Assembly: GCA_964603625.1 (NCBI GenBank)
Contig: CAZRVM010000001.1
Coordinates: 1,949 to 65,948, forward strand
Reading direction: 5' to 3'
Length of the DNA: 64,000 nucleotides
Source: an uncultured Candidatus Saccharibacteria bacterium
GTDB taxonomy: Bacteria; Patescibacteriota; Saccharimonadia; Saccharimonadales; JAGQNJ01
Positions 1,920 to 2,573 of the stretch are shown here, in pieces. Position numbers and translations under genes: made by a program. Within the stretch, counting starts at the first letter, position 1. Each line of letters begins with the position of its first letter. A model generated the notes under the pieces. The model did not search any database and was not told where the DNA came from. It worked only from the letters and a program-made list of their open reading frames with translations.

Positions 1920-2573
1920 TTATCTTAAACCGAGCTTTCTAGTACAGGCTGGCCATTGCCCCCATCCACTTCTAGCCTGAAGTATTTGGCCGCGCATAAT
2001 TTGCTCTTCTCTACTGGCTTGATGCGGTAATCCACTTCCACCAACAGACTTCCATGTAGAAGCTGTAAACTGCAGGCCACCGTAATATCCATTTCCAGTA
2101 TTTATTGCCCAATTACCGCCAGACTCGCAACGAGCTAATGAATCCCAAACATCTCCTTCTGCTACTTTAACATTACTTGTAGTTTCAGATTTTTGCTTCT
2201 TGATATTTTTTGAATTCTTAGTAGCTTTATTCTGATGTTTAACAGCAGGCTTTACTGACTCTGATTTTGGCGTATCTGCCGGCAAGTTTCGACTAGGTAT
2301 TTGCTCATCAGCATTTGGAATTCGTACTTTTTCGCCCGGATGAATTACATCTGGATCTTGAATAAAAGTATTCGCGTCAAACAATCTTACATATGTTGTT
2401 TGGTGTTTGCTCGCAATTTTACTTAAACTATCGTTTTGTATTACTTCAACCATAACAGGTTGTGGTATGTTTGTATTTGGTTGAGCAATTTCTTCTGCTC
2501 GTACGGATGTAGTTGATGCAAAGGCTAAAAAGCCCGCAACAAACAGACCCGCAATTATAGCGGTTTTTCGCAT
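1920..2573 (-). CDS. secreted LysM-domain protein with a C-terminal Rpf-type (resuscitation-promoting factor) transglycosylase-like domain
   Basis: Signal peptide ([21 protein letters not shown]). LysM-like segment ([24 protein letters not shown]...GEKVRIP). The C-terminus ([37 protein letters not shown]...[28 protein letters not shown]) matches the Rpf catalytic-domain signature. Strong SD (AAGGAGG) before the ATG. Confidence 0.85.
   Translation of the reverse strand: [217 protein letters not shown]

Follow-up and report, generated by a model that had tools for sequence, protein, structure and literature searches.

A predicted secreted LysM-Rpf cell-wall hydrolase gene of Saccharibacteria, its conserved 5' leader and its relation to actinobacterial Rpf

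RpfB and RipA provide a precedent for remodelling of the bacterium's own wall by an Rpf enzyme, and the gene order rpfB-ksgA is known from mycobacteria. The rpfA gene of Actinobacteria is controlled by the ydaO/c-di-AMP riboswitch (RF00379). An earlier survey (Ravagnani 2005, PMC1084345) presents Rpf as a family that characterises Actinobacteria, whose genomes each contain many paralogues, and describes in Firmicutes the Sps/YocH-type proteins, LysM-targeted secreted muralytic proteins of monoderms with modular exchange of catalytic domains. Here we analyse a gene encoding a protein with one LysM and one Rpf domain (LysM-Rpf) in a stretch of 64,000 nucleotides (nt) of contig CAZRVM010000001.1 from an uncultured Candidatus Saccharibacteria bacterium; the whole stretch is called the window below. 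Apart from the unusual phylum in which it occurs, the gene represents a known enzyme family in a largely ordinary way. The best overall explanation, to which we assign a probability of roughly 0.8, is that it encodes an exported enzyme that cuts glycan strands, is vertically inherited, owes its locally elevated guanine-plus-cytosine (GC) content to its amino acids, is preceded by a conserved leader and, as a working assignment, acts on the cell's own sacculus.

Related genes have been noticed in Saccharibacteria. According to the supplement of Wang et al. (2023, PMC10633639), cultured Southlakia epibionticum has an RpfB-type protein (DUF348, G5, PF06737; KEGG Rpf orthologue group K21688) encoded beside rsmA (SEML1_0666/0667), as well as a LysM-CHAP protein. 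Shaiber et al. (2020, PMC7739484) observed a LysM protein (COG1388) in 52 of 55 oral TM7 genomes, with no catalytic domain identified. A 2025 preprint (10.1101/2025.03.10.642329) reports that K21688 is enriched in oral Patescibacteria and reads this enrichment as biofilm-related. In the literature searched, no study of Rpf function or origin in Saccharibacteria was found, the notice taken being at the level of annotation.

Judged by its sequence and modelled fold, the 217-residue product is a genuine LysM-Rpf cell-wall-cutting enzyme, with predicted secretion (Table 1). By inspection alone, a Sec signal peptide with recognisable n-, h- and c-regions is predicted at the N-terminus, and A26 is invariant across 68 homologues. 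The protein belongs to the LysM family, scoring 38.1 bits against PF01476, where the gathering threshold of Pfam is 20.9. In the AlphaFold2 model the LysM part forms a beta-alpha-alpha-beta fold (strand 40-43, helices 50-56 and 61-67, strand 82-85) with a predicted local distance difference test score (pLDDT) of about 87, and it matches LysM/CBM50 structures in Foldseek. Across most of residues 100-139, within and just beyond the linker, pLDDT falls below 50, and neither the length nor the sequence of the linker is kept among homologues.

The catalytic domain scores 103.7 bits with PF06737 (Rpf/Transglycosylase-like) against a cut-off of 27, and the match covers profile positions 2-77 of 77. 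It aligns end to end with the solved RpfB, RpfC and RpfE domains of Mycobacterium tuberculosis, with E-values from 5.6e-26 (RpfB, 1xsf) to 1.4e-21. The predicted catalytic Glu150, in the motif ARCESGGNW, pairs with GCEAGGNW of RpfB, and the patterns CE(S/A)GGNW and WP.C are in register in 1xsf. Residues C149, E150 and C210 are invariant in the 68 homologues; the catalytic glutamate and the cysteines are also invariant in a set of 204 Rpf domains. The modelled domain has pLDDT 81-91 over residues 141-217 and is superimposed by Foldseek on RpfE 4cge, RpfC 4ow1 and RpfB 4emn with template modelling (TM) scores of 0.88-0.93 and root-mean-square deviations (rmsd) of 0.6-1.0 A. The initial annotation, which had described a LysM protein with an actinobacterial-type Rpf muralytic domain, is thus upheld by Pfam, by the alignment with RpfB, by the conserved glutamate and cysteines and by the fold model. 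Exactly the same protein is encoded on 12 public contigs. No second Rpf, LysM-Rpf or LysM-CHAP gene was found within the window.

Rpf of Micrococcus luteus (NF046106) has the same components, being a secreted protein with one Rpf domain, one LysM domain, a low-complexity linker and the catalytic glutamate, and its model matches residues 136-216 of the window protein. However, in M. luteus Rpf the Rpf domain precedes LysM, as it also does in a Pseudonocardia protein (L042), whereas in the window protein LysM is N-terminal. The host phylum is different as well. The best solved relative is the RpfB domain of M. tuberculosis (1xsf, 3eo5, 4emn, 5e27), with TM of about 0.9 and rmsd of about 1 A. Unlike RpfB-type proteins, the window protein has no DUF348 or G5 domains; M. 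tuberculosis RpfB has a three-residue loop insertion, whereas the window protein is a short-loop, Arg194 variant. The modular exchange seen in the Sps/YocH-type proteins is paralleled by the pair LysM-Rpf and LysM-CHAP, but the catalytic domain considered here is a true Rpf (PF06737), not Sps.

The segment encoding the Rpf domain is indeed GC-rich. Its GC content is 0.467, compared to 0.362 in the other long open reading frames (ORFs) of the window, and just 0.23% of in-frame 246-nt segments of other genes reach this value; the local elevation in the 3' part of the gene reported in the initial annotation is therefore real. The excess is found in codon positions 1 (0.537) and 2 (0.573). At third codon positions the GC content (GC3) of the segment is 0.293, with 0.306 expected for its amino acids and a gene mean of 0.247 +/- 0.046, and 18% of control segments have GC3 at least as high. 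The amino acid sequence of the domain, combined with the codon usage of the window, predicts a GC content of 0.473 +/- 0.017. The same offset was observed in all of 17 orthologous loci with local GC from 37 to 54%: the domain is richer in GC than its locus by 5.7 to 14.9 points (mean 10.2), and the two values are correlated (r = 0.90). Since native codon usage predicts the observed value, GC3 is ordinary and the offset is present in all these loci, the rise is a by-product of a domain rich in Gly, Trp, Ala, Arg, Cys and Pro that is written in native codons, and it carries no trace of a donor. Synonymous sites and codon usage do not deviate from the host genome, as those of un-ameliorated foreign DNA would, and the codon-position test together with the orthologous loci overturns the earlier suggestion that the elevated GC points to a high-GC donor.

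The genome and the gene have a consistent history. RpoB of the window (32487-36038, minus strand) is 79-83% identical to RpoB proteins named Candidatus Saccharibacteria bacterium, in agreement with the Saccharibacteria-like genome that had been supposed. Homologues with both the LysM and the Rpf Pfam domain, full-length coverage and 50-100% identity form more than 120 clusters (at 90% identity). A scan of 185,579 genomes, one per species, was made, and the best 80 matches were considered. Among the matches listed, the full-length ones come from metagenome-assembled genomes (MAGs) of Saccharibacteria/Saccharimonadales and one MAG labelled Parcubacteria; the species of the window itself is absent from the GTDB representatives among them. 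The latter (Candidatus Parcubacteria, JAHWKM010000008.1, L007 3001-3636) contains a full-length orthologue with 45% identity and a similar 5' hairpin; either this MAG is mislabelled or misbinned, or LysM-Rpf extends beyond Saccharibacteria.

Relatives with protein identities of 92, 66, 64, 61 and 58% retain the arrangement PspC-L33-(NUDIX)-LysM-Rpf, and at 48% identity (L004) the L33 gene still adjoins LysM-Rpf. The genes on the 3' side of LysM-Rpf differ among relatives. In the two cases where contigs could be paired by equal length, the divergence of LysM-Rpf follows that of RpoB: 83% identity of RpoB is accompanied by 58% identity of LysM-Rpf on a 454,555-nt contig, and 81% by 48% on a 285,549-nt contig. 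Because the composition is native, the distribution wide, the synteny conserved and the divergence matched to RpoB, the gene is an old, vertically inherited resident of the Saccharibacterial lineage, fixed beside pspC-rpmG.

The upstream region is conserved beyond the promoter. Across eight orthologous upstream regions the -35 hexamer does not vary and the -10 box hardly does, and the promoter TTGACA-N16-TATGAT of the initial annotation can be placed at 2717-2690; the leader, which had been estimated at about 107 nt, is about 110 nt long. Between the -35 box and the ATG, promoter and leader together are 68-83% identical to those of orthologues with coding sequences 63-72% and proteins 54-70% identical to the window gene, while farther upstream the other half of this intergenic region reaches just 15-64%. 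A hairpin starts directly after the -10 box, and the transcript is predicted to begin at about 2682-2683. In 15 of 16 orthologues the hairpin folds at an equivalent position, with z-scores from -4.65 to -0.63 per orthologue, and it forms despite differing 3' arms, with changes of the type U-A to C-G or UUUU/AGAG to GCGG/CCGU.

The 3' arms of the hairpin could not be aligned by MAFFT, and that alignment was left unused. Two covariance models, R1 and R2, were built from 7 and then 15 leaders; R1 scores the window leader at 110.8 bits. Matches to R1 and R2 lay on the plus strand directly ahead of genes for LysM-Rpf orthologues and LysM-CHAP proteins (L102, E 0.0046 with R1; L100, weak, 0.26), and neither 73 actinobacterial loci nor the remainder of the window gave a match. 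The only other match, to R2 (L140 2044-2131, plus strand, E 0.011), is a GUGUU...AACAC terminator-like hairpin after an unrelated LysM-protein gene and was rejected as a false positive. Thus the hairpin part of R2 alone is not specific. In the model-fitted alignment of 15 sequences, 92.5% of cells are paired and two-sided changes occur in 12 of 19 pairs, values above those of 500 of 500 shuffles and of all slid controls. For helix 1 of this alignment the corresponding values are 94% of cells and 5 of 11 pairs.

Neither ydaO nor any other of the 4227 Rfam families matched the window between positions 1800 and 3000 at E<=10, in line with the initial failure to recognise ydaO here. No Rfam family matched the leader in 12 orthologous loci at E<=1, and none was found upstream in a high-GC LysM-Rpf locus described below (L237), nor was any leader common to this locus and the window family found. 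The same scan detected SAM riboswitches and tRNAs elsewhere; 20 actinobacterial loci gave no ydaO, and thus there is no positive control for ydaO itself. In having a long conserved leader before a secreted hydrolase gene, the window locus resembles the ydaO-controlled hydrolases of Actinobacteria and Firmicutes, and its leader type also precedes LysM-CHAP. However, it differs from ydaO in being shorter and lacking an Rfam match, and no ligand or switching mechanism is evident.

Two candidate mechanisms were considered and rejected. Sequestration of the Shine-Dalgarno box is not indicated, as the minimum-energy fold leaves the box unpaired and the whole leader has a z-score of -0.5. A leader peptide was the other candidate: a conserved ATG opens an ORF of 13 codons in the window. 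However, the frame differs in one relative (L093), and thus the conservation of this ATG is at the nucleotide level. Two further elements were observed on the minus strand near the promoter. Upstream of the -35 box, at 2739-2752, there is an imperfect palindrome similar to GTATTTATTACAAC (TGTAAT...TTACA in relatives), and at 2720-2726 a block GAGGT(T/A)A abuts the -35 box and resembles the GAGGGTA blocks of the leader. Both may be regulator binding sites. The leader itself is an undescribed, lineage-specific candidate cis-regulatory element, which at minimum would comprise a 5'-terminal stabilising stem-loop and conserved downstream blocks.

The modules of the protein also occur in other combinations. 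The signal peptide and LysM module is 49-54% identical to LysM-CHAP proteins of metagenome contigs; with the high-GC LysM-Rpf proteins considered below the LysM identity is 31-42% in BLASTP and 26-39% over trimmed LysM columns. A metagenome scan with the LysM module, swamped by generic LysM proteins, gave five new orthologues and four proteins that share the module and have no Rpf domain. Three of these four are LysM-CHAP proteins, two by Pfam (L098, L102) and one by similarity to L098 (L100). In each of the LysM-CHAP loci (L098 1396-2095 on a 944,881-nt contig, L100 1396-2086, L102 1065-1788) a comparable promoter precedes a 5' hairpin. In a Saccharimonadales MAG (JBGTMN010000059.1, L018 271-3387, plus strand), a class A penicillin-binding protein (PBP; GT51 and transpeptidase) ends in an Rpf domain, so that one polypeptide unites a synthase of peptidoglycan with a hydrolase of its glycan strands. 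A further protein of 1027 residues (P0305) has a C-terminal Rpf domain. On a Logan contig with 47% GC (L238 1534-3809), an RpfB-type gene (DUF348-G5-Rpf) lies directly beside rsmA/ksgA, the 16S rRNA dimethyltransferase gene, which is the arrangement of Southlakia and of mycobacterial rpfB-ksgA.

Within the Rpf core, identity to the window protein is 87-95% in the close family, 68-88% in distant Saccharibacterial members and 60-87% in Actinobacteria. Among Actinobacteria the best match (87%) comes from Nocardioides furvisabuli (L008), where the domain forms the C-terminus of an RpfB-type protein, DUF348x3-G5-Rpf. The short loop without the three-residue insertion, Arg194 and one further sequence variant are common to the family and just a subset of Actinobacteria. 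In a neighbour-joining analysis of 197 unique domains over 78 columns, Saccharibacterial (candidate phyla radiation) and actinobacterial domains were split in 0 of 200 bootstraps; with the Rpf part of a combined alignment this split was obtained in 1 of 300. As judged from this 78-column tree, the domain is inseparable from the Rpf domains of Actinobacteria. A HMMER library search with the Rpf domain alone gave 8936 matches at E<=0.001, with mixed architectures among the best 150.

The order of N-terminal LysM and C-terminal Rpf was also found in high-GC-type proteins (P0274, P0361, P0373 and the L237 pair). Their alignments to the window protein span 176-207 residues with 41-46% identity, and they have in common with the window family an extended motif after LysM, R-L-F-D-A-N ... 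DP ... IP.P-D/E-E-x-L..R.LP. In L237 (GCA_973363955.1, 71.7% GC) two LysM-linker-Rpf genes stand in tandem (2891-3718 and 4001-4870), with acyl-CoA dehydrogenase and FtsH genes as neighbours; thus the architecture is not specific to Saccharibacteria. The high-GC proteins differ in having long Ala/Pro-rich N-terminal extensions, but their separation from the low-GC family is weak: with LysM and Rpf columns combined, these five proteins separate from the rest at only 35% bootstrap. By this comparison the whole LysM-linker-Rpf cassette, beyond the catalytic domain alone, is common to genomes that are presumably actinobacterial.

Two routes by which the domain might have been obtained were rejected. 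The Rpf domains of phages and viral contigs are at most 63-75% identical, match in the Rpf domain only, and in no case cover at least 80% of the protein. A resident low-GC RpfB-type paralogue is not a good source either, as its representatives, among which there is no bona fide Saccharibacterial RpfB sequence, are just 70-72% identical and have motifs resembling the Actinomycetaceae type.

An exchange of the family with Actinobacteria in the distant past, though unproven, is plausible and is taken here as the most likely account; the tree sets neither its direction nor its date. It is the simplest reading because Rpf is so pervasive in Actinobacteria (PMC1084345). If the 3' part of the gene, which encodes Rpf, had been gained recently from an actinobacterial donor of high GC and still showed un-ameliorated GC, this would account for the rare GC content of the segment and for the 87% identity to the Nocardioides domain. 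However, the native codons, the expected GC3, the offset that recurs in the orthologous loci whatever the GC of the genome, and the synteny and wide occurrence of the gene in Saccharibacteria make such a gain highly improbable. On the other hand, there may have been no transfer from Actinobacteria at all, if Rpf was ancestral to a wider group including Saccharibacteria, or moved from Saccharibacteria to Actinobacteria, the likeness then reflecting slow evolution of a constrained domain of 80 residues. The presence of LysM-Rpf, PBP-Rpf and an RpfB-type gene beside rsmA in Saccharibacteria and the missing split between the phyla agree with this possibility. We consider it unlikely, as the many actinobacterial paralogues described in PMC1084345, the mostly actinobacterial origin of the best 80 matches in the species scan, and the nearest domains outside the family, which belong to high-GC proteins (81-87%) and not to low-GC RpfB-type ones, all speak against it.

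As to function, we infer export, anchoring by LysM, cleavage of glycan strands and co-regulation with LysM-CHAP. After Sec-dependent export the enzyme would cut the glycan strands of peptidoglycan: the N-terminal LysM domain would hold it on the polymer, the disordered linker of about 45 residues would give it reach, and the Rpf domain, with its lysozyme-/lytic-transglycosylase-like fold, Glu150 and a predicted Cys149-Cys210 disulfide, would cleave the backbone of N-acetylmuramic acid and N-acetylglucosamine (MurNAc-GlcNAc). Expression would be driven by the near-consensus promoter through the conserved lineage-specific leader. As the 5' stem-loop also stands ahead of LysM-CHAP genes, a glycosidase and a peptidase may be controlled together after transcription, or their mRNAs stabilised, through this element. 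As a working assignment, the enzyme would remodel the sacculus of the epibiont itself in growth and division, by analogy with RpfB-RipA. This role is favoured because of the PBP-Rpf fusion, the housekeeping neighbours of the gene, the RpfB-RipA precedent and the RpfB-type gene beside rsmA in Southlakia.

Several observations count against the assignment of LysM-Rpf to the cell's own wall or against parts of the overall explanation. The evidence from sequence does not fix the substrate, own or host peptidoglycan. The NCBIfam models for Rpf (NF046106) and RpfC (NF046107) cover the C-terminal 80 or so residues with E 1.4e-35 and 3.6e-25, but the scores are below the equivalog cut-offs (123.1 against 180 bits for M. 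luteus Rpf, 88.7 against 200 for RpfC); the protein thus belongs to the Rpf family of enzymes without being orthologous to any characterised Rpf. For the leader, covariation was counted in just 15 sequences, on an alignment that leans towards the model, and the stability of the full-length leader is unremarkable. In the supplement on the cultured Southlakia (PMC10633639), the RpfB-type protein is the sole PF06737 protein listed, so LysM-Rpf is not phylum-wide, and the RpfB-type and LysM-CHAP genes are non-essential in all three columns of the transposon sequencing (Tn-seq) data.

The conservation of the leader could instead reflect DNA operator sites, namely GAGG(G)TA-like repeats, a TGATCA palindrome and the palindrome upstream of the -35 box, with the hairpin being incidental. 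The insignificant fold of the whole leader, the unpaired Shine-Dalgarno box, the little variation of the conserved blocks and the extension of conservation upstream of the -35 box make this quite possible, though the hairpin in nearly all orthologues with differing 3' arms and the two-sided changes in helix 1 tip the balance towards RNA. As to function, a mainly host-directed effector is possible but less likely. Such an enzyme would nick or remodel the peptidoglycan of the actinobacterial host at the contact site for access or nutrients, or mimic the Rpf signal of the host and stimulate dormant hosts. It would fit a protein that is predicted to be secreted, is targeted by LysM and has a host-type catalytic domain 60-87% identical to actinobacterial Rpf. 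It would also fit the growth of cultivated Saccharibacteria on Actinobacteria (PMC10633639), the enrichment of K21688 in oral Patescibacteria (10.1101/2025.03.10.642329) and the proposal of LysM proteins as attachment factors in oral TM7 (PMC7739484). However, the gene is not linked to a secretion system or pilus, its neighbours being rpmG, pspC, tRNAs and zwf, and the PBP-Rpf fusion points to use of the domain on the self wall. In PMC10633639 the Rpf-type and LysM-CHAP genes are dispensable for the epibiotic growth of Southlakia by Tn-seq. Action on the host wall is a live alternative that does not exclude the own-wall role. The further combination, in which an undescribed leader RNA controls LysM-anchored Rpf and CHAP hydrolases in place of the ydaO of the hosts, and Rpf opens the host wall or mimics the growth or resuscitation signal of the host in order to wake or soften it, would be a long shot.

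Table 1. Features of the LysM-Rpf locus and its surroundings in the window
Feature	Position	Strand	Details and basis
LysM-Rpf coding sequence	1920..2573	-	217 aa (amino acids); stop TAA 1920-1922; ORF list and Pfam
Predicted Sec signal peptide, aa 1-26	2496..2573	-	MRK, hydrophobic core, SVRA/EE; read by eye
LysM peptidoglycan-binding domain, aa 43-86	2316..2447	-	PF01476, E 1.5e-9
Lys/Ser/Thr/Asn-rich linker, aa 91-135, predicted disordered	2169..2303	-	AlphaFold2 pLDDT
Rpf catalytic domain, aa 136-217	1923..2168	-	PF06737 at aa 138-210, E 8.5e-30
Predicted catalytic Glu150	2124-2126	-	equivalent of RpfB Glu292
Putative disulfide Cys149 and Cys210	2127-2129 and 1944-1946	-	aligned with two RpfB cysteines
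Sigma-70-type promoter	2690..2717	-	-35 TTGACA 2712-2717, N16, -10 TATGAT 2690-2695; 11/12 consensus
Conserved 5' leader, about 110 nt	2574..2683	-	hairpin 2657-2682; Shine-Dalgarno AAGGAGG 2584-2590
Intrinsic terminator	1861..1901	-	stem-loop 1866-1901 and U-tract; between convergent rpf and zwf
tRNA-Thr(GGT), tRNA-Tyr, tRNA-Thr(TGT)	3393-4275	-	just upstream of the pspC-rpmG-rpf block
tRNA-Leu	41773-41856	-	Rfam scan of the window

The intrinsic terminator downstream of the gene folds with -17.8 kcal/mol (z = -5.09), and none of 200 shuffles was as stable. Beyond it, at 1-1834 on the plus strand of the window and on contigs of the same species, zwf, gnd (6-phosphogluconate dehydrogenase) and a Glucosamine_iso-family gene form an oxidative pentose-phosphate cluster. 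Relatives with 58-92% identity (L087, L091-L093) carry downstream, at varying distances, a Zeta_toxin/KTI12-like kinase, YgjP and a histidine kinase. Since the downstream genes differ between the window and these relatives, the terminator is a breakpoint of synteny. Beside rpoB (region 23484-36038, minus strand), ORFs of 1271, 695 and 393 aa are probably rpoC, fusA and tuf, as guessed from their size and order.

Rpf is usually presented as an actinobacterial speciality tied to the exit from dormancy; here it is stable and widespread in Saccharibacteria, with up to 87% identity to the actinobacterial domains. To what had been noted on this gene the analysis adds the evidence of long residence, the full-length high-GC homologues and an undescribed conserved leader of two hydrolase gene families. 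Local GC peaks in low-GC genomes can be wholly driven by amino acids, as in this case. The conserved leader, which belongs to no Rfam family and is common to LysM-Rpf and LysM-CHAP genes, offers a testable handle on the regulation of wall hydrolysis in minimal cells. Saccharibacteria are obligate epibionts, and their cultivated members grow on Actinobacteria. For them the LysM-Rpf gene is a concrete candidate for a function in growth of the epibiont wall, or in manipulation of the wall or dormancy of the host.

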